Below, one piece after another: positions 2,974 through 59,469 of a stretch of DNA of 64,000 bases. Made by a program: the position numbers and the translations under genes. The stretch is from the NCBI GenBank assembly GCA_040219085.1, contig JAVJTC010000020.1, forward strand, positions 208,317 through 272,316, written 5' to 3'. The notes beneath the pieces were generated by a model that worked only from the letters and a program-made list of their open reading frames with translations, was not told where the DNA came from and did not search any database. Position 1 is the stretch's first letter; every line of letters starts with the position of its first letter. Source of the stretch: Acidimicrobiales bacterium (GTDB lineage: Bacteria > Actinomycetota > Acidimicrobiia > Acidimicrobiales > JAVJTC01).

Positions 2974-4322
2974 CGGACCTCGATGCCATCGTCAAGGCCT
3001 ACGACATCCGTGGTGTGGTGCCCGACCAACTCGACGCCGATCTGGCGGGACGCCTGGGTGCCGCGTTCGGGCGTTTCATCCGCGACGACGACCCCGGGGT
3101 GACCGAGGTCCTGCTCGGACGCGACATGAGGGAGTCGGGGGTCGCTCTGAGTGAGGCGTTCGCCGAGGGCGTGATGTCCCAGGGCCTCGACATCGTGGAT
3201 CTCGGGCTCATCTCCACGGACCTCCTCTACTACGCATCCGGCTCACGCGGCGCCCCGGGCGTGGTGTTCACCGCCTCGCACAACCCCGCCGAGTACAACG
3301 GCATCAAGTCGTGCCGGGCCGGGGCGGCCCCGATCGGGGCGGAGTCGGGTCTCGCGGAAATCCGCCGACTCGCCGCTGAGGGCGTGGAGCCGGCCGACAC
3401 CCGCGGCGAGAGGCGGTCCGAGGACCTCCTCGAGGACTTCGTCGCCCATGTCCACGCGCTGGTCGGCGTCGCAGGGATCGGCGCCGTGAAGGTGGTGGCG
3501 GACGTCGCCAACGGGATGGGGGGCCTCGTGGTTCCGGCGATGTTCGCCGGGCTGCCGGTGGACCTGGAGGTCATGTACCCGGAGCTCGACGGGACGTTCC
3601 CCAACCACCCGGCCGACCCGATCCAGGTCGAGAACCAGCGTGACCTGCGGGACCGCGTCCTCGAGGTCGGCGCCTCGATCGGCCTGGCATTCGACGGCGA
3701 CGCGGACCGTGTCTTCATCGTCGACGAGCACGCCGAGCCGCTGTCGGGCTCCACGACCACGGCGATGGTCGGGGCGGCGCTGCTGGGCCGTGAGCCCGGT
3801 GGCACGGTCCTCTACAACCTGATCTGTTCCAAGTCCGTCCCCGAGATCGTCACCGAACGCGGCGGAACCGCTGTTCGGACGCGGGTGGGGCACTCCTACA
3901 TCAAGTCGACGATGGCCGAGACGGGAGCGATCTTCGCCGGTGAGCACTCGGGCCACTACTACTTCCGCGACAACTACCGGGCCGATTCAGGGGTCATCGC
4001 CGCGCTCACGATCCTGCGCCTGATGGCCGAGTCGGGCCAGCCGCTCTCAGAGCTCCGCAAGCCCTTCGAGCGCTACGCCGCATCGGGGGAGATCAACCTC
4101 CGCGTCGGCGATCAGGGTGCCGTGATCGACCGGGTCCGCGCCGCATACTCCGATGCCGATCTCGACGAGTTGGACGGGCTGACGGTGGACCTCGGAGACT
4201 GGTGGTTCAACCTTCGAGCCTCCAACACCGAACCGCTGTTGCGACTGAACCTCGAGGCGCCCGACGCGGACTCGGTCGACGCGCACGTCGCCGAGGTGCG
4301 GGCGATCATCGACGGCGGCTGA
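2970..4322 (+). CDS. manB: Phosphomannomutase/phosphoglucomutase
   Basis: Active-site loop FTASHNPAEYNGIK and Mg-binding FDGDADRVFIVDE. 450 aa. GTGA overlap with the GT2 gene. Confidence 0.92.
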   Translation: MTDLDAIVKAYDIRGVVPDQLDADLAGRLGAAFGRFIRDDDPGVTEVLLGRDMRESGVALSEAFAEGVMSQGLDIVDLGLISTDLLYYASGSRGAPGVVFTASHNPAEYNGIKSCRAGAAPIGAESGLAEIRRLAAEGVEPADTRGERRSEDLLEDFVAHVHALVGVAGIGAVKVVADVANGMGGLVVPAMFAGLPVDLEVMYPELDGTFPNHPADPIQVENQRDLRDRVLEVGASIGLAFDGDADRVFIVDEHAEPLSGSTTTAMVGAALLGREPGGTVLYNLICSKSVPEIVTERGGTAVRTRVGHSYIKSTMAETGAIFAGEHSGHYYFRDNYRADSGVIAALTILRLMAESGQPLSELRKPFERYAASGEINLRVGDQGAVIDRVRAAYSDADLDELDGLTVDLGDWWFNLRASNTEPLLRLNLEAPDADSVDAHVAEVRAIIDGG

Positions 4323-4347
4323 CGAAAACGACGAACCGAGGACGACA

Positions 4348-4584
4348 ATGACACTGGACCGCCGCCTGCTCGACATCCTCGCCTGCCCCGAGGACAAGGG
4401 TCCGCTGCTCTATTTCGAGGCCGACGATTTCCTGTACAACCCGCGCCTGCACCGCAGGTACCGGATCGATGACGGCATCCCTGTCATGCTCATCGACGAG
4501 GCCGACAACGTCGACGAGGCCGAGCACGACTCGATCATGGCGCGTGCGGCCGAACTGGCGATCGAACCGACGTTCACACCGTGA
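4348..4584 (+). CDS. Trm112-family small protein
   Basis: 78 aa. LLDILACPEDKGPL ... YRIDDGIPVMLIDEA is the typical Trm112/UPF0434 pattern, and the gene sits in the usual actinobacterial position between manB and the PMI gene. Confidence 0.8.
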   Translation: MTLDRRLLDILACPEDKGPLLYFEADDFLYNPRLHRRYRIDDGIPVMLIDEADNVDEAEHDSIMARAAELAIEPTFTP

Positions 4585-5621
4585 GCGCGCAACGGATCGA
4601 CACGCTCGGAATGTGGGACGCCTTCGCCGGGCTCCCCGACCAGGTGGAGGCCGCCGTCGCGGCGGCACAGGCCGTCGACGGGCTACCGGACCCCAAGGGC
4701 ATCACGAACGTACTCGTCCTCGGAATGGGCGGTAGCGGGATCGCGGGGGACTTCCTGACCGTCACCGCGGGACCGTTCATGTCGCTACCCGTCGTCGTGG
4801 TGAAGAACTACACGACGCCGTCCTACGTCTCGGAATCGACCCTGGTCATGGCCGTGTCGGCGTCGGGGAACACGGCCGAGACGGTCGAGGCGACGATCAC
4901 CGCGGCCTCACTCGGGGGCCAGGTCGTCGCCGTCACCGGCGGCGGACGGCTCGGTGAACTCGCCCGGGGCTGGGGGGCGCCCGTCGTTCCCGTCGACGCC
5001 TCGATCCCGATGCCACGTGCGGGTCTGGGGGCCGTTGCGATCCCGCCGCTGGTCGTGTTGGAGCGAATGGGGTTCTTCCCCGGGGCGGGGGAGTGGATCG
5101 GCCTGGCGGTCGAGCAGCTCAGGCGACGTGGCGCGGAGCTGACCGGGCCCGCGAGTCCCGCTCTCGATCTCGCCCGGCGGATCGGCCGGACGCTGCCGAT
5201 CATCTACGGCGGCGGTGGCACCGGTGACGTCGCCGCGCGGCGCTGGAAGACCCAGATCAACGAGAACGCCAAAGTCCCGGCCTTCTCCAACACCGTGCCC
5301 GAGCTGTGTCACAACGAGGTCGTCGGTTGGGGCCAGCACGGTGACGTGACGCGGCAGGTCTTCTCGCTCGTGTTCCTGCGTCACGACGACGAGCACCCCG
5401 CCGTCGGTGAGACGTTCGCCGTCCTGTCCGAGATGATCGGCGAGGTCGTCTCCGACATCCACGAGGTGGAGGCCGGCGGTGACGGCGTCATCGCCCAGGT
5501 TCTCGACATGATGATGTTCGGAGACGCCGTCTCCCTCGAGATGGCCGGCCTCGAGGGAATCGACCCGGGTCCGATTCCGGCCATCGCCGAGCTCAAGTCC
5601 CGCCTGGAGGGGCTGGTCTAG
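4581..5621 (+). CDS. Bifunctional phosphoglucose/phosphomannose isomerase (SIS domain)
   Basis: SIS motifs LGMGGSGIAGD and VSASGNTAETV. 346 aa. GTG start overlaps the Trm112 stop. Confidence 0.85.
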   Translation: MSAQRIDTLGMWDAFAGLPDQVEAAVAAAQAVDGLPDPKGITNVLVLGMGGSGIAGDFLTVTAGPFMSLPVVVVKNYTTPSYVSESTLVMAVSASGNTAETVEATITAASLGGQVVAVTGGGRLGELARGWGAPVVPVDASIPMPRAGLGAVAIPPLVVLERMGFFPGAGEWIGLAVEQLRRRGAELTGPASPALDLARRIGRTLPIIYGGGGTGDVAARRWKTQINENAKVPAFSNTVPELCHNEVVGWGQHGDVTRQVFSLVFLRHDDEHPAVGETFAVLSEMIGEVVSDIHEVEAGGDGVIAQVLDMMMFGDAVSLEMAGLEGIDPGPIPAIAELKSRLEGLV

Positions 5622-25794: not shown

Positions 25795-25797
25795 AAG

Positions 25798-26184
25798 TGG
25801 AGCTGGGGGGAATCGAACCCCCGTCCGTCGTGCGTTCACCACCTGCGATACGACCATTCCCGGACTACGGCGTTTCGGCTGCCGTGTCGCCGGGTCGATT
25901 CCCCCGAAGGGGTCCGCCGGCTCTTTCTCCGGTCGTCAGCGGTCTTTCTCGCCGTCAGCGGTCTTTCCCTGCCGTCCTCCTCCGCTTCTGTTGCCAGGCT
26001 GCGGTGGAATGGCCCCGCGTGCCCCCTAGGGGGTCGCGATGTGCTCTCTTACCTGATCAGTCGATCAAGCTGCGAGAGCGACACGATCATCGCTGCCGTG
26101 TCTTCGTGTGCCCCGTTTAAGGAGTCTGAGCAACTCCGGTCGCACAGTGAGGATCCGGTCCCGACGTCGAAACCGATCAGCCCC
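25798..26184 (-). ncRNA. ssrA: tmRNA (transfer-messenger RNA)
   Basis: The minus strand starts GGGGCTGATCGGTTTCGACG and ends GGACGGGGGTTCGATTCCCCCCAGCTCCA (tRNA-Ala-like T-arm and acceptor). Internal tag frame: ..CAC GGC AGC GAT GAT CGT GTC GCT CTC GCA GCT TGA = ..HGSDDRVALAA*, with the stop at 26065-26067. smpB is 1.3 kb away. Confidence 0.95.
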
Positions 26185-32941: not shown

Positions 32942-32973
32942 CGACACGCATGCCTCGGGCCCTGCCATTCCGG

Positions 32974-33058
32974 TGCGCCAGGTGGGAATCGAACCCACAC
33001 GGGCGTTAGCCCACAGGGTCCTAAACCCTGCGCGTCTGCCTGATTCCGCCACTGGCGC
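32974..33058 (-). tRNA. tRNA-Leu (anticodon TAG)
   Basis: Cloverleaf read by hand: acceptor GCGCCAG/CTGGCGC, anticodon arm CAGGG-TTTAGGA-CCCTG, long variable arm, T-arm GTGGG-TTCGATT-CCCAC. 85 nt. Confidence 0.93.
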
Positions 33059-44434: not shown

Positions 44435-44438
44435 CGAG

Positions 44439-44511
44439 TACGCCCCCTGGGACTCGAACCCAGAACCTGCGGATTAAGAGTCCGATGCTCTACCAATTGA
44501 GCTAGAGGCGC
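44439..44511 (-). tRNA. tRNA-Lys (anticodon CTT)
   Basis: Acceptor GCGCCTC/GGGGCGT (with G-U pairs), D-arm GCTC-AATTGGTA-GAGC, anticodon loop CTCTTAA, T-arm CTGGG-TTCGAGT-CCCAG. 73 nt. Confidence 0.9.
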
Positions 44512-44576
44512 ATGTGGGGTGCCGATGCTACCGGCGACGGGACGGTGCCCGTGCGATCGCGGAAGTCCGGACCTTG

Positions 44577-44651
44577 GGTGACCGAGGGGTTTCGAACCCC
44601 CGACCTCCGGGACCACAACCCGGCGCTCTAACCAACTGAGCTACGGCCACC
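44577..44651 (-). tRNA. tRNA-His (anticodon GTG) with encoded G-1
   Basis: Acceptor GTGGCCG/CGGTCAC preceded by an extra G opposite discriminator C. Anticodon arm CCGGG-TTGTGGT-CCCGG. T-loop TTCGAAA. Confidence 0.92.
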
Positions 44652-47217: not shown

Positions 47218-47291
47218 GCCTCCGTAGCTCAGATGGATAGAGCAGTGGACTTCTAATCCTCAGGTCGCAGGTTCGAATCCTGCCGGGGGCG
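47218..47291 (+). tRNA. tRNA-Arg (anticodon TCT)
   Basis: Acceptor GCCTCCG/CGGGGGC, D-arm GCTC-AGATGGATA-GAGC, anticodon arm GTGGA-CTTCTAA-TCCTC (one U-U mismatch), T-arm GCAGG-TTCGAAT-CCTGC. 74 nt. Confidence 0.85.
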
Positions 47292-47364
47292 CCGATGTGA
47301 TGCCGCAGGTGGCGCCGGGGGTGATGGTGCGGACGGTCTCGTGGCGGTAACGCTCCGGAGCGGT

Positions 47365-47519: not shown

Positions 47520-48518
47520 CTACGACTCGATCTCAGGAGGCTCGGGCGTCTCCGGAGTCTCGATCTCCTCCGGCTCGTCCTCTTCCTCCGGCTCGTCCTC
47601 TTCCTCGGGCTCCTCGGGATCTTCGGGGTCTTCGGGGTCCTCGCCCCCGTGATCGTCTCCATCGTCGGGGGTACCCGTCGGCGTCGGTGTGGCCGTCGGC
47701 GTGCGTGTCGGCGTCGGCGTGGCGCTCGGGCCGGGACCGGGCGTGGGCGTCGATCCGCCGGGGGTCGCTGTCGGCGTGGTGGTCACGCCGCCGTCGGTCG
47801 AGCCCTCGTCGCCGGTGCCGTCCGTGTCGCCACCGGTTCCGCCGTCATCGCCATTCCCGCCGGAATCCGTCGGCCCGGCGGAGCCACCGTCGGTGGTCCC
47901 GCCCGGGACACCTCCGGCATCGCTGCTCGAAGTGACCGGTGCCGCTCCAGAAGAGGTCGTGACGGTGCCGTTGCGCAGTTGGGCGCGCCAGCGGACGTTC
48001 TCGGTGCCGTCGGTCAACAGGAGCTCGATGACGCTTCCATCTTCGGTGACCACGACGTGGGACCAGCCCGGATCGGTGTCGACGGACATGAGGGTGAGGG
48101 CGTCGGCTTCGATACGCACTGTGACCAGGGCCACGTCGATGTCGAAGCGGGCGATGCCGTCGCTTCCCGGGGTGGCCGAGGGTCCGGCTTCGAGCACGAT
48201 CGCCCCGTCGATGGAGGTTCCGTCGCCGGAAACGCCGTCGCCGCCGTCCGTCGTGGATCCGCCGCCGTCAGGGTCGCCGGCGACGGTGATCTCGTTGCCG
48301 CCGTCGTCGCTGCCGCTTCCCGACAGGGCGAACGCAGCAGCCGCCACGGCGATCACGAGGAGTAGCGAGACGCCGAGTCCGGTGACGGCCACGCGCCGGT
48401 TGCGGGCGCGCCGCATGCGGGGGCGCAGTCCCTCGAGCACGGCCTCGGGATGGTCGATCCGGCTCGGGGCCGCTTCGAGCAGACCCCGGCGAATCTCGTC
48501 GTCGAACATGTCGTTCAT
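47520..48518 (-). CDS. Single-pass membrane protein coupled to ECF sigma (candidate anti-sigma) with Gly/Asp/Thr-rich and acidic Glu/Pro C-terminal tail
   Basis: ATGA overlap with the sigma gene. ~44-aa cytoplasmic N-terminus, a TM helix (VAVTGLGVSLLLVIAVAAAAFAL), an external ~90-aa folded-looking segment, then low complexity ending DDGDDHGGEDPEDPEDPEEPEEEDEPEEEDEPEEIETPETPEPPEIES. Confidence 0.65.
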   Translation of the reverse strand: MNDMFDDEIRRGLLEAAPSRIDHPEAVLEGLRPRMRRARNRRVAVTGLGVSLLLVIAVAAAAFALSGSGSDDGGNEITVAGDPDGGGSTTDGGDGVSGDGTSIDGAIVLEAGPSATPGSDGIARFDIDVALVTVRIEADALTLMSVDTDPGWSHVVVTEDGSVIELLLTDGTENVRWRAQLRNGTVTTSSGAAPVTSSSDAGGVPGGTTDGGSAGPTDSGGNGDDGGTGGDTDGTGDEGSTDGGVTTTPTATPGGSTPTPGPGPSATPTPTRTPTATPTPTGTPDDGDDHGGEDPEDPEDPEEPEEEDEPEEEDEPEEIETPETPEPPEIES

Positions 48519-49018
48519 CGCCAGCTCTCCTCCCGGTCGTCGCCTTCGCTCAGGTGTTCACGCAGGTTCGCCCTGGCCTGCGAAAGGTGTGCCTTGACGG
48601 CGCCCTCGGAGATTCCCATCGAGTCCGCGATCTCGCGGACGGGAAGGTCCTCCAGGTAGTGCAACACGATCGCGGTGCGCTGACGTTCCGGGAGTCGGCC
48701 GACGAGTTCGGCGAAACCGCCGTCTTCGGCGCCGAGGGACACGTGGCTGCGGGGCTCGGCGCCCGCCCGTGCCTCCGCTTTCCTCTGGCGCTCGCGCTTG
48801 CGGGCGAGGTCCCGGAGCCGGTTGATCGCCACACGGCGGACCCACGCCTGGGGGATGTCGTAGCGACGGATCCGGTTCCAGCGCGAATAGGCCTTGACGA
48901 AGGCGTCCTGGACGGCCTCGGCGGCCGCCTCAGCGTCGCCGAACGCCACAGTCAGCGATGCGACGACCGGTCCGTACGTGTCGGTGAAGAACGCGTCGAA
49001 ATCGTGCCTGTCGGTCAT
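48515..49018 (-). CDS. ECF-type RNA polymerase sigma factor
   Basis: Region 2 (AVQDAFVKAYSRWNRIRRYDIPQAWVRRVAINRLRD) and region 4 (LPERQRTAIVLHYLEDLPVREIADSMGISEGAVKAHLSQAR). ATG 49018 chosen; the ORF extension to 49825 is rejected. Confidence 0.85.
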   Translation of the reverse strand: MTDRHDFDAFFTDTYGPVVASLTVAFGDAEAAAEAVQDAFVKAYSRWNRIRRYDIPQAWVRRVAINRLRDLARKRERQRKAEARAGAEPRSHVSLGAEDGGFAELVGRLPERQRTAIVLHYLEDLPVREIADSMGISEGAVKAHLSQARANLREHLSEGDDREESWR

Positions 49019-49167
49019 CTCGAAGACGATCCGCCTCGTCGCTGTCTGGGTGGCGGTAATGACGCGTGCGGCCGGCCTCGCATCGCTCAGCGAGATCAGC
49101 CGAAGCCACTCTTCGCCCAGTGTGGCAGGAAAGGTCACACCTCTCACACGCACCTGAGGGCCCCGCA

Positions 49168-49215
49168 GGTTTAGTCGCATCGCAAACCGAAAAAAGATTC
49201 GTGGTCGGCTAAACC
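49168..49215. promoter_or_regulatory. Imperfect inverted repeat GGTTTAGTCG-28 nt-CGGCTAAACC in the divergent promoter region
   Basis: 10-bp arms with 1 mismatch flanking an A-rich stretch (CCGAAAAAAGATTCG). It lies between the sigma start (49018) and the operon start (49272). Confidence 0.3.
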
Positions 49216-49271
49216 CCCAGCGTGGTGACCGGCGTGTCCCATGTGACGAGTCCCCCGGACCAGGAGCCACC

Positions 49272-49979
49272 ATGCCTCGCCGCACCGCACTCACGATCGC
49301 CGCCTCGGTCATCGCCGTCATCGTGACGGCCACCACGGCCGTCGCCCTGTCACTGTCGGCCCTCGACGCCGGCCAGACCACCGAGGCCCAGTTCGCCGCA
49401 GCGGTCAGTCCGATAGAGGAGGCGCCTGGCGAGCCGGTCGTGGAACCGGTCGCCGATGTCGTCGACCCCACCGCCGAGGCGGTGCCATCCGAAGACCCCA
49501 CCACCGAGCCCGAATCCGGCGAGACGCCGACGTCGGTTCCGGCGGCTACCGGTTCGTCGCCGGCCTGGACCGCTCCGGCCCCTGCGAACTTCGCTCCGAC
49601 GCCTACCGGCACTCCGACCGCTCCCCCTGTGGCCCCCGCCGGCGATGCGACCCAGCAGACGGCACCTTCCTCCTTCGAGGTCGATGACCTGGTCGTGCCC
49701 ACACCGGCGGCCACCCCGTCGGCTGCTGCGACGCCGGCGCCGTCCGGCCCCGTCAGTCGGCCGATCTCGCCGGTGGCGACCACACCGACGCCGACTTCCG
49801 CGCCGGCTGCCACGCCCTCTCCCACCGCTCCGGCGTGGGAAGACGACGACGAGTACGACGAGCACGAAGACGAGCACGAGTACGAGCACGAGTACGAGGA
49901 AGAGGACGAGTACGAAGAGCACGAAGACGAGTACGAGGAAGAGGACGACCACGAGTACGAGTACGAGGACGGTCACTGA
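49272..49979 (+). CDS. Membrane-anchored or secreted Pro/Thr/Ala-rich protein with 46-aa C-terminal E/D/H/Y tail
   Basis: AGGAG lies 6 nt upstream of the ATG. N-terminal hydrophobic segment LTIAASVIAVIVTATTAVALSLSA. Tail: EDDDEYDEHEDEHEYEHEYEEEDEYEEHEDEYEEEDDHEYEYEDGH. Confidence 0.7.
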   Translation: MPRRTALTIAASVIAVIVTATTAVALSLSALDAGQTTEAQFAAAVSPIEEAPGEPVVEPVADVVDPTAEAVPSEDPTTEPESGETPTSVPAATGSSPAWTAPAPANFAPTPTGTPTAPPVAPAGDATQQTAPSSFEVDDLVVPTPAATPSAAATPAPSGPVSRPISPVATTPTPTSAPAATPSPTAPAWEDDDEYDEHEDEHEYEHEYEEEDEYEEHEDEYEEEDDHEYEYEDGH

Positions 49980-50734
49980 TGGCGGCCGACGCCCCGGCGC
50001 CCTCGCGCCGTCGTCAACCGCCGGCTCTGGCGGCCCGCATCATCGCCACGAGCGCAACGGTGTGTCTGTTCATCGGGATCGTGCTCGCCATGGGCGGCTT
50101 CGTCGAGAGCCGTCGCGTCACCACCCTGGCTGCCGCCGTCGGGGATCCCGCTCCTGATCCCGCGTTCGACGCGGCCGGTTCGCCGCCGGGCACGGTCGGC
50201 GCCGAGACCGAGGTGACCGTTCCGGAGACGCCGTCGACGGTCGTCGAACCCACCCCTGGGGCTGACGCCGCGAACGGGCCCCTCGACGCGGAGACCCCCG
50301 TCGAGGAAGCGACCCCCGCGGGTGAGCAGGGTCCGGCGAGCCCGGCCGGTGGGGCCGTGTCGGTCCAGCCGAACGCCGCCGCCACTCCCGGCGCCCCGGC
50401 ACCGACTGCGCCCGCACAGCCGGCTGCCCCGGCACCGGCTCCGTCGAGCGCAGCCCAGCCTGCGGCGACGCCGGCCCCCACGGCGGCTCCGCAGCCTGCG
50501 GCGACTCCCGCTCCCACGCAGCCTCCGGCATCACAGCCGACCACCGCGCCGACGCCGGCCCCGACGGCGGCGCCCACGCCGCGTCCGACGGCGGCGCCCA
50601 CCCCGGCTCCCACCGCGGCCCCTACGCCTCCGCCCACCCCGGCGCCGACGCCGGCTCCAACGGCCGCGCCGACGCCGGCACCGACGCCTCCGCCGACCCC
50701 CGTGCCGACTCCGACCACCCAGCCGAGCGGATGA
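49979..50734 (+). CDS. Single-pass membrane protein with long Pro/Ala/Thr repeat region
   Basis: TGATG overlap with the upstream gene. TM helix IIATSATVCLFIGIVLAMGGF. The C-terminal ~120 aa are (TPAPTAAP)-like repeats. ATGA overlap with apbE. Confidence 0.65.
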   Translation: MAADAPAPSRRRQPPALAARIIATSATVCLFIGIVLAMGGFVESRRVTTLAAAVGDPAPDPAFDAAGSPPGTVGAETEVTVPETPSTVVEPTPGADAANGPLDAETPVEEATPAGEQGPASPAGGAVSVQPNAAATPGAPAPTAPAQPAAPAPAPSSAAQPAATPAPTAAPQPAATPAPTQPPASQPTTAPTPAPTAAPTPRPTAAPTPAPTAAPTPPPTPAPTPAPTAAPTPAPTPPPTPVPTPTTQPSG

Positions 50735-51648
50735 GCGCCACAACCGTGCGGGTGCACGAGTTCCGGGCGATGGGCTCGCGGTGTCAGGTGGTGGTGGACG
50801 GACCTCTCGGGCTGACCGATCGCGCCGAGGCGCGGGTCCGGGCGCTCGAGGAGACCTGGTCCCGGTTCGTCGCTGACAGCGAGATCTCCCGGATCAACGA
50901 GCGGCCCGGTCGGCCGGTGACGGTGGGTTCCGCCACGATCGACCTCTTCCGGCGGGCCGAGTTCGCCCGTGTCTCCACCGGCGGGCTCTTCGACCCGATG
51001 GTGCTCGACCATCTCATCGCGGCGGGCTATGACCGCGACCATCGCGAGCTCGTGCCCGCCCAAGGGACAGCGCAGCCCCGGACCGGCGCCGCCCGTCCGG
51101 TGGGTACGTTCCGGGTGGACGGCGACACCGTCACCGTCGAAGGCGGCCGGTTCGATCCCGGCGGTCTCGGCAAGGGACTGGCCGCCGATCTGGTCGCGGA
51201 AGAACTTCTCGAGGTCGGTGCCGCCGGTTGCTACCTCGACCTCGGCGGCGACATCCGCTTCGCCGGCGAACCGATCGACGGTGAGCGTTGGCGCGTGCAC
51301 GTCGACGATCCCCTGGGTGTCGCTCCCGTGTGCACCCTCGGGCTGCCCCCGGGTGGTGGAGGCGTCGCCACGTCGGGTGTTCTCACCCGACGCTGGCACC
51401 ACGACGGTGCGGACCGGCACCACCTGATCGATCCCCGCACCGGTGAGCCCGCCGACACCGCTCTGGCGTCGGTGACCGTGATCGCCGGGGCCACATGGTG
51501 GGCGGAAGTCATGGCCAAGTCGGCGCTCGTCGCGGGCGCAGACGACGCAGAGTCGCTCCTGCATGAAGGTGGCGTGACGGCGATTCTGGTCGCGAAGAAC
51601 GGAAAGAGAACAGTCGTCGGCGATCTCGAGGAGGTCGGCGGATCGTGA
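50731..51648 (+). CDS. apbE: ApbE-family FAD:protein FMN transferase (no signal peptide or lipobox visible)
   Basis: DPGGLGKGLAAD (compare the GGIAKGYA loop) and HHLIDPRTGEP (compare HIIDPRTG). 305 aa. The N-terminus MSATTVRVHEFRAMGS lacks any hydrophobic leader. Confidence 0.85.
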   Translation: MSATTVRVHEFRAMGSRCQVVVDGPLGLTDRAEARVRALEETWSRFVADSEISRINERPGRPVTVGSATIDLFRRAEFARVSTGGLFDPMVLDHLIAAGYDRDHRELVPAQGTAQPRTGAARPVGTFRVDGDTVTVEGGRFDPGGLGKGLAADLVAEELLEVGAAGCYLDLGGDIRFAGEPIDGERWRVHVDDPLGVAPVCTLGLPPGGGGVATSGVLTRRWHHDGADRHHLIDPRTGEPADTALASVTVIAGATWWAEVMAKSALVAGADDAESLLHEGGVTAILVAKNGKRTVVGDLEEVGGS

Positions 51649-52292
51649 ACGAGCAGCTGTGGTGGTACGTGGCCCGATCCGGTGGCATCGTCGCGTGGGC
51701 TCTGCTCACGGTCTCGGTGGTGCTCGGACTGTCGCTGTCCACGGTGATCGCCGGCCGGAGAGTCCCAAAGCCCTGGCTCCTGTCGATGCATCGGTATCTG
51801 GGGCTCGTCGCCATCGTCATGACCGGGTTCCACCTCGCCGGCCTGGTAGCCGACAGCTATGTGCACTTCGACGTCATCGACCTCCTGGTGCCCTACTCGT
51901 CGGAGTGGCAGCCCGGGGCGGTCGCATGGGGGGTGGTGGCCATGTGGCTCCTGCTCGCCGTGGAGATCACGTCTCTGCTCCGCCGCCGGATCCCGAAGAG
52001 GCTGTGGCGGTGGGTGCACGTGTCCTCGTTGCCGCTGTTCGCCATGGCGACCGCGCACACCTTCACCGCCGGCACCGACGCCGGCCACGGCTGGTTGCGG
52101 TGGGGCGCGATCATCTCCGTGAACGTCGTGGCCTTCCTGACCATCGTTCGCATCGTCGTCGAGAAACGACCGGCCCGGGTCATCCCGGCCCGACCGTCGG
52201 CGAAGAGAACGCCTCCGGTGGAGCCGTCGTCGCAGGGAGTTCCCGAGGTCGAGCCGTCGCAAGAGCGGGTCCCCGTGGTATCTCAGGGCTGA
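51645..52292 (+). CDS. Ferric-reductase-domain (MsrQ/YedZ/NOX-type) bis-heme b membrane protein
   Basis: Six hydrophobic helices. His-x13-His (HRYLGLVAIVMTGFH) and His-x12-His (HVSSLPLFAMATAH) sit in alternate helices. GTGA overlap with apbE. Confidence 0.78.
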   Translation: MNEQLWWYVARSGGIVAWALLTVSVVLGLSLSTVIAGRRVPKPWLLSMHRYLGLVAIVMTGFHLAGLVADSYVHFDVIDLLVPYSSEWQPGAVAWGVVAMWLLLAVEITSLLRRRIPKRLWRWVHVSSLPLFAMATAHTFTAGTDAGHGWLRWGAIISVNVVAFLTIVRIVVEKRPARVIPARPSAKRTPPVEPSSQGVPEVEPSQERVPVVSQG

Positions 52293-55629: not shown

Positions 55630-56420
55630 TGCGCCCGCTCGATGTCGCCGAGGCGGCCGCGGCCGGCGAAGAACAGGACCGTCGCGGCGATGGCGACGAG
55701 GCCCGAGGCGACCTGTGTGGCCGGGCCGAACGCGGTCGACGCGTCGGCGGTCCGGTCCACGGTGACGATGACCGCCAACCACAGACCGCCGACCGTGAGA
55801 GCCGCCCGCCGGACCGTGATCCGGGTGGCCAGCGCCATCGTGGCGGCCGTCACCGCGAGAGCCGGGAGAAGCCAGGCGATGCGCGCCGGTCCTCGTTCGG
55901 GGGTCAGCACCGCCGCCACGAGGAGAAGCGCGGTGCTCGACGTCAGCACCGTCAGGGTCCGCACGAGGAAGACCCGGTGGCCCTCCATCGGTGCGGCCAC
56001 GACGATGTCATGGGTCGGATCGACGCCCCGCCCGAACGCCAGAGCGACACCGAGCAGCGGCACGAGCGGTGCCATCGTGAGGAACACGACGAGACGATCG
56101 ACCCCCTCGCCGCCGCTTCCGGACGCCGCCTGCAGAGCGAAGACCAGCGCGATCGTGACTGCGACCAACCATGATCGGCGCAGACCCGGGGTCGCGGTCA
56201 CCAGCGAAACCGTCACGTCGTCGACGCCGAGGCGCGTCATGATCCGGGCGACCAAGCGGGGCTTCGAAGCAGCAACCTCGGCCTGCACGGCGGCGAGGTT
56301 CGCAGCGAGCCGGGCCGGGTCGGGGGCAGCCTGGTCCCGGGGGCCCGCGAGCCGCACCGGGTCTGTCGCCGCCGCCTGCAGCGCTGTCTCGAGCGCGGTC
56401 GATCGGGATGTGGGACTCAT
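55626..56420 (-). CDS. Polytopic membrane protein (about 6 TM) coupled to ECF sigma and ABC ATPase; candidate anti-sigma and/or permease
   Basis: ATGA overlap with the sigma gene. ~85-aa soluble N-terminus followed by six hydrophobic segments. No zf-HC2 motif seen. Confidence 0.6.
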   Translation of the reverse strand: MSPTSRSTALETALQAAATDPVRLAGPRDQAAPDPARLAANLAAVQAEVAASKPRLVARIMTRLGVDDVTVSLVTATPGLRRSWLVAVTIALVFALQAASGSGGEGVDRLVVFLTMAPLVPLLGVALAFGRGVDPTHDIVVAAPMEGHRVFLVRTLTVLTSSTALLLVAAVLTPERGPARIAWLLPALAVTAATMALATRITVRRAALTVGGLWLAVIVTVDRTADASTAFGPATQVASGLVAIAATVLFFAGRGRLGDIERAQ

Positions 56421-56965
56421 CGGAGTTCCTCCTCGAGGATGCGACGGGCACGCGCCAGGCGGGACTTGACCGTGCCGGTGGGGATGTCGAGCAGTACGGC
56501 CGCCTCGCGGTTCGTCAGCCCGTCCAGTGCGGTTGCGGCCAGCACGGCCTGCAGGTCCGGTTCGAGCCGGGCGAAGGCCTGACCCAGGTCGGTGTCGGCG
56601 AGGGCGATGGGCACCTCCTCGGTCACCACCCGTGCGAGTCGTGAGATCTCCTCCACCGGTTCAGGTGGGCGGAGTCGACGCATCTGGTCGATGAGACGGC
56701 GCAGCGCGATCGTCCAGATCCAGGCGGCGACATCGCCGGTCGGTTCGTAATCGCCGGCCTGGCGCCACACCGCGAGGAAGGCGTCCTGGATCGCGCTGTC
56801 GATGTAGTCCGCATCTCCGCAGCGGCGCGCGAGCCGGGCCATGAGCCAACCCGCGTGGCGCTCGTAGAGCGCTGCGAGGGCCGCCCGGTCCCCGTCACCG
56901 ATGCGCGCGATCAGCGCACGGTCCGAGGTGTCCGCGTGCTCCCCGGCGTCGGTCACCACCGCCAT
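56417..56965 (-). CDS. ECF-type RNA polymerase sigma factor
   Basis: Region 2 (IQDAFLAVWRQAGDYEPTGDVAAWIWTIALRRLIDQMR) and region 4 (LTNREAAVLLDIPTGTVKSRLARARRIL). ATG 56965 lies 1 nt after the upstream gene's stop. Confidence 0.85.
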   Translation of the reverse strand: MAVVTDAGEHADTSDRALIARIGDGDRAALAALYERHAGWLMARLARRCGDADYIDSAIQDAFLAVWRQAGDYEPTGDVAAWIWTIALRRLIDQMRRLRPPEPVEEISRLARVVTEEVPIALADTDLGQAFARLEPDLQAVLAATALDGLTNREAAVLLDIPTGTVKSRLARARRILEEELR

Positions 56966-58084: not shown

Positions 58085-58756
58085 ATGGACAACGGAACGC
58101 CCATGACGTCCGAATCGGCCCCCGACGGGGTGGGACCTGCCACCGCCGCGGCCACCATGGACGGTGTGAACCCCTTCCGTCGCCTGCGCGCCGTGCCCGA
58201 CACGGCGCAAGAGGCATCGTCGGCGGACGAACTCATGGTCAGGGCGGCGCGCGGCGATGAGGCCGCGTTCGCCCTGCTGTACGACGAACTCGCTCCGCTC
58301 GTCCACGGCGTCGTCCTCAAGGTTCTGCGTGACCCCTCCCGGGCCGAGGAGGTCACCCAGGAAGTCTTCGTCGAACTCTGGCGCATCGCCGCGCGCTACG
58401 ACGCCGGGCGTGGTTCGGTGAGAGCCTGGACGGCGACGCTCGCGCACCGCCGCGCGGTCGACAGGGTCCGCTCCGAGCAGGCCCACCGCGACCGCAACGA
58501 CCGCGTGAGCCGCCTCGAACCGACTGTCGAGGACACCGTGGCCACCGACGTCGAGGATCGTTTCGAACGAGAGCGGGTCAGGCGCAGTCTCGACGAACTG
58601 ACCGACCTGCAACGCGAGGCCGTCGAACTCGCCTACTTCGGGGGTCACACCTACCGCGAGGTGGCTGTGCTTCTCGGCGTCGCCGAGGGGACCGTGAAGA
58701 CACGGATACGCGACGGTCTGATACGTCTACGCGACACCATGGGAGTGGAATCATGA
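58085..58756 (+). CDS. sigK: ECF sigma factor, SigK-like
   Basis: Region 2 (EVTQEVFVELWRIAARYDAGRGSVRAWTATLAHRRAVDRVR) and region 4 (LTDLQREAVELAYFGGHTYREVAVLLGVAEGTVKTRIRDGL). Followed by an RskA-type gene. Start is 58085 or 58103. Confidence 0.82.
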   Translation: MDNGTPMTSESAPDGVGPATAAATMDGVNPFRRLRAVPDTAQEASSADELMVRAARGDEAAFALLYDELAPLVHGVVLKVLRDPSRAEEVTQEVFVELWRIAARYDAGRGSVRAWTATLAHRRAVDRVRSEQAHRDRNDRVSRLEPTVEDTVATDVEDRFERERVRRSLDELTDLQREAVELAYFGGHTYREVAVLLGVAEGTVKTRIRDGLIRLRDTMGVES

Positions 58757-59469
58757 CCGACGACATCCACCTCCTCGCCGGGGCCTACGCGCTCGATGCC
58801 CTCGATCCCGACGAGAGGCGCCGTTACGAGGCGCACTACACCGACTGTGAGCTGTGCGTCGATGAGGTGGCCGGGTTCCGTGCCACCGCGGCGGCGCTCG
58901 CCGGCGCCGTGGCCGACGCCCCGCCGCCGGACCTCAAGGCCCGGGTCATGGCCGAGGTCGCCCGGACCCGCCAGGACGCCCCCGTGGTCGTGCCGCTCGC
59001 CCGGGTCAGGCGCGGGCGCACACTGCTGGCCGTCGCGGCCTCGGTGATCGCGGTCGTCGTGGTCGTCGGAGCCGTCCTGTTCGGCCTCGACGCCGGGGGC
59101 GAGCGCGACGACGCCGTCGAGTTGGCCTCGGTGCTGACCGCGCCCGATGCGGTCACCACGGTTCTCGACGGTGCCGTCGGCGACGGCACCGTGCGTGTCG
59201 TCTGGTCGCCCGAGCGTGACGCAGCGGTGGTCGTCGGCGCCGGTCTCGCCGCTCCGGGGTCCGGCGAGACCTACGAACTGTGGTCGCTGCGCGGCGACGA
59301 GGCCCGTCCCGCCGGGCTCTTCGTGCCGGACGAGGGCGGTTCGGTCACGGCCCTGCTGGAGGTGGCCTTCGACGACTCCGAGGCGTGGGGGATCACGATC
59401 GAGCCTGCGGGCGGATCGCCCAGCCCCACCGGTGAGATCCTCTACCTCGCAGAGGTCTCCCGGGCCTGA
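58753..59469 (+). CDS. rskA: Anti-sigma-K factor RskA-like
   Basis: LLAGAYALDALDPDERRRYEAHYTDCELCVDEV N-terminus, a central TM helix, and a C-terminal domain with YELWSL..GITIEPAGGSPSPTG. ATGA overlap with the sigma gene. Confidence 0.85.
   Translation: MTDDIHLLAGAYALDALDPDERRRYEAHYTDCELCVDEVAGFRATAAALAGAVADAPPPDLKARVMAEVARTRQDAPVVVPLARVRRGRTLLAVAASVIAVVVVVGAVLFGLDAGGERDDAVELASVLTAPDAVTTVLDGAVGDGTVRVVWSPERDAAVVVGAGLAAPGSGETYELWSLRGDEARPAGLFVPDEGGSVTALLEVAFDDSEAWGITIEPAGGSPSPTGEILYLAEVSRA

Follow-up and report, generated by a model that had tools for sequence, protein, structure and literature searches.

The protein encoded by gene 1, as we call it here, from an Acidimicrobiales bacterium ends in 46 residues that are nearly all glutamate, aspartate, histidine, or tyrosine. 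What might such a tail be for? Gene 1 lies in a stretch of 64,000 nucleotides (the window) of contig JAVJTC010000020.1, assembly GCA_040219085.1 (coordinates in Table 1). A first-pass annotation of the same DNA proposed that the tail captures metal ions outside the membrane, next to a protein with a ferric reductase domain (FRD). We found that gene 1 belongs to an undescribed family of small proteins, that it leads a cassette of overlapping genes for an ApbE-family FAD:protein FMN (flavin mononucleotide) transferase and a Ferric_reduct (MsrQ-like) haem protein, and that the tail has the signature of a disordered region kept for its composition. Our preferred reading, which we hold tentatively, is that the tail would be a metal-binding arm that serves this redox module. 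A role in sensing is a serious rival.

The acidic tail is translated and is probably outside of the membrane

The tail (EDDDEYDEHEDEHEYEHEYEEEDEYEEHEDEYEEEDDHEYEYEDGH) is composed of 22 Glu, 10 Asp, 7 Tyr, 6 His, and 1 Gly, exactly the 32 acidic residues, 7 Tyr, 6 His, and 1 Gly counted in the first-pass annotation, and has a net charge of about -32. It includes 6 overlapping ExxE motifs, and its His and Tyr residues are spaced every 2–6 residues. A TGA stop at 49977–49979 closes the open reading frame (ORF). The underlying DNA is a degenerate repeat: Tandem Repeats Finder reports a repeat at 49857–49971, with a period of 6 (GACGAG, 18.7 copies) and a period of 24 (4.6 copies) with 73–76% matches, so the earlier description of this DNA as quasi-periodic was fair.

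Since DNA rich in GAN can be read without stops in several frames, we built a codon table from six supported genes of the window and scored each frame by the mean log P of the codon given the amino acid. The frame of the tail scores -0.42, as compared to -0.52 expected of real genes in the window, whereas the +1 frame (Thr/Ser/Lys/Arg) scores -1.70 (expected -1.01) and the +2 frame (Arg-rich, and running on into the next gene, gene 2, after a GTG at 49835) scores -2.85 (expected -1.30). Within the tail, all Asp, Tyr, and His codons end in C, and GAG outnumbers GAA by 16 to 6. Because this codon usage fits real genes and that of the alternatives does not, the tail frame is the translated one, and we dismissed the Thr/Ser-rich and Arg-rich readings. 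The Arg-rich reading from the GTG (MGRRRRVRRARRRARV...) is part of a 299-residue ORF that overlaps the tail and is in frame with gene 2; its third positions are nearly all A, and by its codon usage it is no gene but a shadow cast by the GAN repeat.

Ahead of the tail, the protein has one hydrophobic segment near its N terminus, which we take to be a signal anchor, and a linker that is rich in Pro, Ala, and Thr (22%, 21%, and 15%, with 1 Lys or Arg and 18 Asp or Glu) and is presumably disordered. MPRR precedes the anchor and acidic residues follow it (flanking charges of +2 and -2). Given a single hydrophobic segment with these charges, the protein should be oriented N-in/C-out, which agrees with the earlier claim that the tail is outside of the membrane. 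There is also a possible signal peptidase site (SLSA/LD), and the tail would be outside with or without cleavage.

Gene 1 belongs to an undescribed family

The gene 1 protein does not belong to any Pfam or NCBIfam family; it has only sub-threshold, composition-driven matches. When we used the full protein in a word-indexed homology search, low-complexity sequence swamped the candidates and no match reached E ≤ 0.001, so an exhaustive search was needed. We used phmmer (HMMER) against 1.84 billion representative proteins, again with E ≤ 0.001. This gave ten matches, nine of which are small proteins (143–243 amino acids) with the same type of anchor (P0121–P0129; E = 1e-6 to 6e-4 for matches over the full length). 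All nine carry tails of Asp, Glu, His, and Tyr (D/E/H/Y tails), such as ...DDDYEDDDHEDDDYEDDDHEDDDHEDDDHEDDDEHEGRDDDD and ...EEYETEEYETEEYEEYEAEYEEDQGYEEDEHEEEHEEEDDHEGEYDGD. We then trimmed the tails, aligned the remainder, and searched with the resulting profile (A1), which retrieved 37 proteins, all with acidic ends. Since a profile without tails still retrieves acidic ends, the way of searching does not explain the tails.

Together, these searches yield a family of about 44 unannotated members, and gene 1 is, judging from its sequence, one of them. The family, which is undescribed, consists of small proteins of Actinobacteria of the Acidimicrobiia type. The members are named "hypothetical protein" or not at all in the source databases. 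The precomputed Pfam column is empty for 37 of the 37 profile matches, and none of the members that we scanned (nine against Pfam and six against NCBIfam) reached a family cut-off. We discarded the sub-threshold matches from the family scans (PPP4R2, the VirD4 tail, ribosomal L10/P2, ZnuA, and ZrgA) as driven by composition. A literature search found no description of the family and no equivalent acidic His/Tyr tail in Actinobacteria. What is new is the conserved, unannotated family; the tail itself is a variant of a familiar kind of acidic and His-containing low-complexity segment associated with metals.

The best-conserved part of the family is the anchor with its juxtamembrane motif, AvGANLGIL (anchor consensus M.hRTALItAaSia.VvfAgavAvGANLGIL). 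The N terminus of the window protein matches positions 1–36 of a hidden Markov model (HMM) of the family with E = 0.0019, and its GANLGIL core has diverged to ALSLSAL. In addition, most members carry a beta domain, about 95–100 residues long, with the core AGtVsV...LrLvdV...GW.W...L.VtF....Y.F.A....G.I.ArVd.P. In the AlphaFold2 model of P0144, this domain has eight strands (residues 48–145) and, for most of its length, a predicted local distance difference test (pLDDT) score of 80–94 by block. In the linker and tail, pLDDT is below 50, which is consistent with disorder. A Foldseek search of the PDB with this model found nothing at E ≤ 0.001 (the best hit had E = 3e-3 and a TM-score of under 0.4). 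The beta domain is missing from P0123, P0124, and P0126–P0128. It is not present in gene 1 of the window either: the linker stands in its place, and the HMM matches the N terminus only. The segment SSFEVDDLVV of the linker may be a leftover of the domain's first strand (this is a visual comparison without a score).

The tails are conserved in composition

Across the family, DD is the C-terminal pair in 40 of 44 members, His occurs among the final 25 residues of 38 of 44, and these ends contain almost no Lys or Arg. Recurrent endings are EHEG[RG]DDDD and GG.ADD. Nineteen members have D/E/H/Y tails of 19–69 residues, and members without a long tail have short ends such as GDDGHDGGEQDD. The end of the window protein is acidic, contains His, and is free of Lys and Arg, but its last residues are EDGH, where most members have DD. 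Given the loss of the beta domain and this DGH terminus, we view it as a derived, stripped-down member that consists of anchor, linker, and tail. The first-pass annotation asked whether orthologues keep an E/D/H/Y tail, and they largely do. The closest relative (L010, whose ApbE is 58% identical to that of the window) ends with ...DDDDRFDDDGGKDDHDDDGGEDDE, and there are the nineteen long-tailed members, but the orthologues from Ilumatobacteraceae (see below) have no such tail.

We pooled the 19 long tails (845 residues) and found 47% Asp, 29% Glu, 7.8% His, 6.9% Tyr, and 3.4% Gly, with every other amino acid at 1.2% or less. Tyr, His, and Asn can each be reached from the Asp codon GAC by changing its first base, and the pooled tails contain Tyr 58 times, His 66 times, and Asn just 3 times; among the neighbours of Glu, they contain Lys 4 times and Gln 2 times. 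The binomial probability is about 2e-18, a value that is inflated by the kinship of the sequences, although the direction is clear. The retention of His and Tyr, with so little Asn, Lys, or Gln, argues for selection that favours His and Tyr and not for drift of a GAC/GAG repeat.

Three closely related members (P0133, P0135, and P0136) illustrate how the tails evolve. Their bodies are 98.4–99.5% identical without any gaps, whereas their tails are just 65–75% identical with 9–19 gaps. These tails still contain only Asp, Glu, His, and Tyr (or Phe), and they share the end DDDEHEGRDDDD. This is the signature expected of a disordered region that is kept for its composition, plus a short conserved terminal motif. 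Our best reading is that the long tail is a lineage-specific expansion of the family's conserved C terminus, which is acidic and contains His.

Gene 1 leads a cassette with ApbE and a Ferric_reduct protein

In the window, gene 1 is followed by gene 2, apbE, and the Ferric_reduct gene, and all of these overlap: the gene 1 stop and the gene 2 start by 1 nucleotide, gene 2 and apbE by 4, and apbE and the Ferric_reduct gene by 4. The earlier claim of a neighbouring protein with a ferric reductase domain was therefore right, and the gene is in the same operon of overlapping genes. The same order, mostly with overlaps, is found in five other loci: L013, L014, L015, L017, and L019 (family members P0125, P0132, P0131, P0144, and P0129, respectively). 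In L010, where the FRD protein is 76% and the N terminus of gene 2 is 64% identical to those of the window, the contig starts inside gene 1, whose end (HSDDDDRFDDDGGKDDHDDDGGEDDE) is followed by gene 2, ApbE, and FRD. In L016, L018, and L020, the contig breaks off after gene 1 and gene 2, which is consistent with the cassette but incomplete. L012 is rearranged, with gene 1 (ending in ...SGEHEHEG...GEGGHTDD), gene 2, and FRD together and apbE beyond a two-component system. In our preferred reading, the tail protein would be made in fixed proportion with the other three products of the cassette.

A separate scan of GTDB genomes that was anchored on ApbE identified seven loci from Ilumatobacteraceae (L002–L008) and one from Burkholderiales (34–47% identical). 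The Ilumatobacteraceae loci keep the cassette, as well as a pair of genes for an extracytoplasmic function (ECF) sigma factor and an anti-sigma factor, and the family HMM matches their gene 1. A six-frame scan of the ApbE-anchored loci found no D/E/H/Y tail, so that branch, at this degree of divergence, lacks it. (Gene calling from the G+C content of third codon positions was too noisy in the Ilumatobacteraceae loci, so we inspected the frames by hand.) Given these tailless proteins and the short ends of about half of the family, the long tail is not essential to the cassette.

Several of the Ilumatobacteraceae loci encode a second Ferric_reduct paralogue about 2–4 kb downstream of the first and past the sigma/anti-sigma pair (L004 8286–8879, L006 9124–9657, and L007 9110–9655; 51–55% identical to the window protein). 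L011 has frameshift errors (1164–2071 and 4202–5083) that split ApbE into two ORFs. We rejected its apparent His run (DLDHHHDHDD), which is out-of-frame poly-Thr from an error-prone assembly of the long-read type; such a spurious His-rich stretch could lead a scan astray.

The Ferric_reduct protein of the window has two pairs of histidines (His49-x13-His63 and His125-x12-His138), which fits the FRD pattern of two His pairs, 12–14 residues apart, on two transmembrane helices, and it is predicted to bind two haems. The cassette resembles the MsrQ-like flavinylation-associated clusters, which, according to Meheust et al. 2021 (PMC8238504), are widely conserved among Actinobacteria and have been proposed to mediate transmembrane electron transfer, and some of which have been tied to iron uptake or assimilation (PMC8238504, PMC11334425). 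PMC8238504 defines these clusters by a PF01794 protein whose gene is clustered with apbE or with a flavinylation substrate; in the window, PF01794 and PF02424 are found in adjacent, overlapping genes, along with the bis-haem His spacing. Unlike the cassette of the window, those clusters typically, though not obligatorily, include a gene with an FMN-binding domain and often have an NAD-binding domain on the MsrQ-like protein. The cassette has two anchored low-complexity proteins instead, and a signal peptide is lacking from its ApbE. The passages that we read in PMC8238504 and PMC11334425 make no mention of the acidic-tail family.

Gene 2 has no Pfam match (E ≤ 0.01) and has poorly conserved positional homologues in L003, L004, L005, L012, L014, L015, and L017. 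A C terminus of the type T-T-x-x-S-G(G) recurs among gene 2 and its homologues (TTQPSG, TTSASG, TTAASGG, TRPSGG, TTSGSG, TTTRGS, and TSHGS) and is seen also in loci where gene 2 ends without an overlap with apbE. This motif could be a non-canonical target of ApbE or a partner-binding site. By eye, we saw no canonical flavinylation motif, [S/T]GA[S/T], in either gene 1 or gene 2; ATGSS in gene 1 comes nearest.

A possible arm for metal ions at a redox module

How might the tail serve this cassette? In the reading that we prefer, the N-terminal anchor would hold the gene 1 protein in the membrane, and the linker would carry the polyanionic tail into or through the cell wall. The tail would be a disordered, multivalent arm for cations, most plausibly transition-metal ions, which it might bind via carboxylates, imidazoles, and phenolates, and the arm could then concentrate or present these ions at the outer face of the electron-transfer module. 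Disordered segments that are rich in His, Asp, and Glu are recurrent extracytoplasmic metal binders. Taken together, the linkage to the cassette and the constraint on composition make this reading plausible, although we would not put it above an even chance.

Several kinds of known proteins resemble the tail in part. Among the nearest precedents in function, along with the ExxE motifs discussed below, are SilE and PcoE: SilE is a disordered extracytoplasmic metal binder, and these small proteins lack structure without metal, bind multiple ions via repeated motifs, and are encoded beside a metal-responsive two-component system (PMC5008109). They differ from gene 1 in being soluble and not polyanionic, with His/Met motifs for soft Ag+ and Cu+, whereas the gene 1 protein is tethered to the membrane and has hard or borderline ligands (carboxylate, imidazole, and phenolate) whose metal binding is only predicted. 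Our Pfam and NCBIfam scans showed no homology to SilE or PcoE. Another comparison is with the low-complexity segments of the ZnuA loop, ZrgA, SlyD, HypB, and UreE, in which His and acidic residues form flexible antennae or stores for metals. The family tails have composition-driven matches to ZnuA and ZrgA in NCBIfam (E = 0.1–0.3, far below the cut-offs). However, the segments in all five of these proteins are additions to folded domains that bind metal or act as chaperones, are richer in His, and do not feature Tyr. As for FbpA and transferrin, which the first-pass annotation had invoked, the likeness holds for ligand chemistry alone (Tyr, His, and Asp/Glu). FbpA and transferrin are folded two-lobe proteins that position two Tyr, a His, and a Glu/Asp along with a synergistic anion, and gene 1, an anchor with low-complexity sequence, has no match to a solute-binding family in Pfam or NCBIfam and no sign of a fold of the FbpA type.

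A number of observations weigh against the metal-binding arm. First, the family is not always linked to the cassette: in a divergent branch (P0165), gene 1 is followed by a response regulator and a histidine kinase, with no ApbE or Ferric_reduct protein within 7 kb. Second, the long tail is not universal: gene 1 of the Ilumatobacteraceae loci (L002–L008) has the anchor, the linker, and the beta domain but no acidic tail, about half of the family has just a short Gly/Asp/His end, and the window protein, with no beta domain and with DGH instead of DD at its end, is atypical. Third, the redox module lacks some expected parts. ApbE of the window has no signal peptide, lipobox, or hydrophobic segment (KD19 maximum of 0.47 in its first 60 residues), and its Pfam domain begins at residue 14, so that it may be cytoplasmic; also, no substrate of the FMN_bind, DUF2271, or DUF3570 families is encoded in the cassette of the window or among the called genes of L013–L019. 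Fourth, no metal transporter is consistently present in the neighbourhoods that we examined. Finally, the evidence singles out no particular metal, and iron is not favoured over other cations. In P0146 (DDDDFDDSDFDDDDFDDDH...) and once in P0135, Tyr is swapped for Phe, which weakens the case for a phenolate-Fe(III) role.

Sensing and other alternatives

The most serious rival is that the tail binds a cation or a polycation and reports its availability to the adjoining anti-sigma factor or OmpR-type two-component system, which would control the ApbE/haem cassette. The first-pass annotation did not include the family, the adjoining regulators, or an acidic-tailed paralogue of gene 1, and it is these that make sensing a serious rival to capture. 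A regulator adjoins gene 1 in 8 of the 9 loci with a visible flank: the ECF sigma and anti-sigma pair in the window, a response regulator with or without a histidine kinase in L012, L013, L014, L017, L018, and L019, and a response regulator and a kinase on the P0165 contig, which has the regulator without the ApbE/FRD genes. The kinases of L014 and L018 and the response regulator of L014 (two-component systems at L014 8399–10455 and L018 4829–6196) have their best matches in heavy-metal (czt/sil/cop) subfamilies, below the curated cut-offs.

The paralogue is the anti-sigma-like protein encoded in the window. We found just two stretches with at least 17 D/E/H/Y residues out of 25 in all six frames of the 64 kb, and they are about 2.3 kb apart at this one locus: the tail of gene 1 and the C terminus of the anti-sigma-like ORF. 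The tail is thus far outside of what chance would give. When we compared the family HMM to the six-frame ORFs, it matched the outer part of this ORF at HMM positions 75–188 with an independent E value of 1.7e-4, and it also matched the anti-sigma ORFs of L002–L007 (overall E = 1e-6 to 1e-2, from a small database). Given this match and the acidic end, the outer part of the window's anti-sigma protein has the architecture of the family (beta domain, linker, and acidic end); DDHGGED within its tail aligns weakly with the family's terminal motif. (hhalign of the anti-sigma protein against a profile of 8 sequences gave a weak probability of 11.5%; it was the larger family HMM that gave a usable signal. 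A strict regular expression for the beta domain matched L013 alone, so we relied on the HMM search.) By this homology, gene 1 and the sensor portion of the anti-sigma regulator beside it are paralogues, which makes signalling a real alternative to substrate capture. The concentration of conservation in the anchor and AvGANLGIL is also what would be expected if this helix contacts a helix of a membrane partner.

Sensing of metals by ExxE motifs has precedents. The extracytoplasmic ExxE or RExxE motifs of PmrB, ColS, VgrS, and BqsS are binding sites for Fe or Zn through which an OmpR-type regulator is controlled (PMC4074579, PMC5231390, PMC12424716). The gene 1 tail has such motifs and its family adjoins OmpR-type systems, but those kinases have just one or two copies of the motif, within their own sensor loops, whereas gene 1 encodes a separate protein with a long tract, and its partner in the window is an ECF anti-sigma factor. 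There are also looser parallels, not based on homology, in which a regulator in the membrane receives a divalent-cation signal from a separate anchored protein outside the cytoplasm or from a cluster of acidic residues. In the CnrX-CnrY-CnrH system, an anchored metal sensor acts with an anti-sigma factor and an ECF sigma factor, and CnrX has a folded helical His/Met/Glu site; PhoQ senses divalent cations with an acidic patch of 7 residues in a PAS-like domain.

On the other hand, in nearly all of the loci it is the ApbE/FRD genes, and not the regulator genes, with which gene 1 has translational coupling, and the type of regulator varies (two-component or ECF) while the cassette is constant. 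The other regulators are not nearest to heavy-metal subfamilies: those of L012, L013, and L018 best match MtrA or CseB and the kinase of L012 best matches BaeS, all below the cut-offs. A tail of 46–69 residues also far exceeds what a sensing site needs. We consider the co-sensor to be a real possibility, but on balance a less likely one than the metal-binding arm.

Capture and sensing might also be combined. In such a "sense-and-reduce" system, which would be of a new type in Actinobacteria, would act on extracellular metals, and would have the anchored gene 1 protein as its missing outer part, the arm would gather Fe(III) or another oxidised metal, possibly mineral-borne; the two-haem MsrQ-like protein and a non-canonical substrate flavinylated by ApbE (e.g., gene 2) would reduce it; and the paralogous arm on the anti-sigma or kinase partner would switch the operon on. 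The dense array of Tyr and His could then take part in electron hopping or in metal-dependent oxidation. We think this scheme unlikely.

Similarly unlikely is a non-specific polyanion with no role for transition metals, which might, as an electrostatic or entropic element, hold the tether out through charge repulsion, contact the cell wall, buffer Ca2+, Mg2+, or protons, or bind a basic partner. This would account for the predominance of Asp and Glu (76% of the pooled residues), for tails that vary from 12 to 69 residues and are not conserved in sequence, and for members with few or no His or Tyr (there is no His in the tails of P0128, P0140, and P0141). It does not account for the selective retention of His and Tyr with exclusion of Asn, Lys, and Gln, and the His near the end of most members and the terminal motif suggest a specific ligand.

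The tail might instead be tolerated junk, that is, a functionless expansion of a 3' GAC/GAG repeat by replication slippage. The repetitive DNA, the rapid gain and loss of residues, and the tailless orthologues from Ilumatobacteraceae would fit. However, at least 19 members with identities of only about 30–47% carry long D/E/H/Y tails, their composition is tightly held, the synonymous codons are those of a translated gene, and TAG stops, which are one step from GAG, have not truncated the tails. We think that this is quite improbable. Lastly, an artefact of annotation or assembly (another true frame, or a frameshift error in low-complexity sequence) is scarcely credible, because, even though the +2 frame is open into gene 2 and the frameshifts of L011 do make poly-Thr look like a run of His, the tail frame is strongly favoured by codon usage, the identical gene 1 sequence is present in two assemblies (from run SRR26147846 and a 290-kb contig of the NCBI Acidimicrobiales metagenome-assembled genome), and independent relatives from many samples have the same kind of tail at the same position.

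Features of the window

The features that we discuss are listed in Table 1. The ECF sigma factor beside gene 1 is SigE-family-like, with 132.8 bits for TIGR02983, which is below the cut-off of 141.55. The region downstream of the cassette is dense in envelope-signalling pairs, with two more ECF sigma genes within 10 kb (positions from the gene calls of L001, shifted by +47394). ARAGORN also identified four transfer RNAs and a transfer-messenger RNA (tmRNA).

Table 1. Positions of gene 1, its parts, and its surroundings in the window.
Feature	Positions	Strand	Details
tmRNA	25797–26184	-	ARAGORN; unusual predicted tag GAHEDTAAMIVSLSQLDRLIR
tRNA-Leu (TAG)	32972–33058	-	ARAGORN
tRNA-Lys (CTT)	44438–44511	-	ARAGORN
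tRNA-His (GTG)	44576–44650	-	ARAGORN
tRNA-Arg (TCT)	47218–47293	+	ARAGORN; just past the 3' end of the anti-sigma gene
Anti-sigma-like membrane protein	47520–48518	-	Outer part with beta domain of the gene 1 family, then linker
Second acidic tail	47523–47666	-	Last 48 residues of the anti-sigma-like protein, DDGDDHGGEDPEDPEDPEEPEEEDEPEEEDEPEEIETPETPEPPEIES; ORF list, D/E/H/Y scan
ECF sigma factor	48515–49180	-	Pfam Sigma70_r2/r4; divergent from gene 1, 91-bp spacer
Shine-Dalgarno-like AGGAG	49262–49266	+	5 nucleotides before the ATG of gene 1; read from the sequence
Gene 1, tail protein	49272–49979	+	235 residues; anchor, linker, and acidic tail; ORF list
Hydrophobic segment (putative signal anchor)	49284–49364	+	Residues ~5–31 of gene 1, TALTIAASVIAVIVTATTAVALSLSAL; KD19 maximum 2.24
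Pro/Ala/Thr-rich linker	49365–49838	+	158 residues; from composition
Arg-rich ORF (rejected)	49835–50734	+	299 residues
Acidic tail	49839–49976	+	46 residues, C terminus of gene 1
Gene 2	49979–50734	+	251 residues; Arg-rich N terminus, one transmembrane segment, long Pro/Ala/Thr region, end TTQPSG
End of gene 2	50714–50731	+	Recurring C-terminal motif
ApbE-family FAD:protein FMN transferase	50731–51648	+	305 residues; PF02424, E = 1.1e-50
MsrQ-like/Ferric_reduct transmembrane haem protein	51645–52292	+	215 residues; PF01794, E = 3.3e-10
Two more ECF sigma genes, one followed by an RskA_C-type anti-sigma gene	56417–56965; 58103–58756; 58753–59469	-; +; +	

Implications for ApbE/MsrQ-like clusters

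Clusters that combine ApbE with MsrQ-like proteins are widespread in Actinobacteria, and their outer partners and physiological electron acceptors are obscure. Our analysis supplies a conserved and previously unannotated first gene for such a cassette in Acidimicrobiia that are abundant, and uncultured, in soil and freshwater. The family also offers a natural example of a disordered region that appears to be kept by composition, with bodies that are ~99% identical beside tails that are 65–75% identical. If the arm binds no metal, then it is one more low-complexity tail. If it does bind metal, then it would hint at what the whole module uses as its substrate or its signal, and would do so in the form of a short peptide that is readily synthesised.

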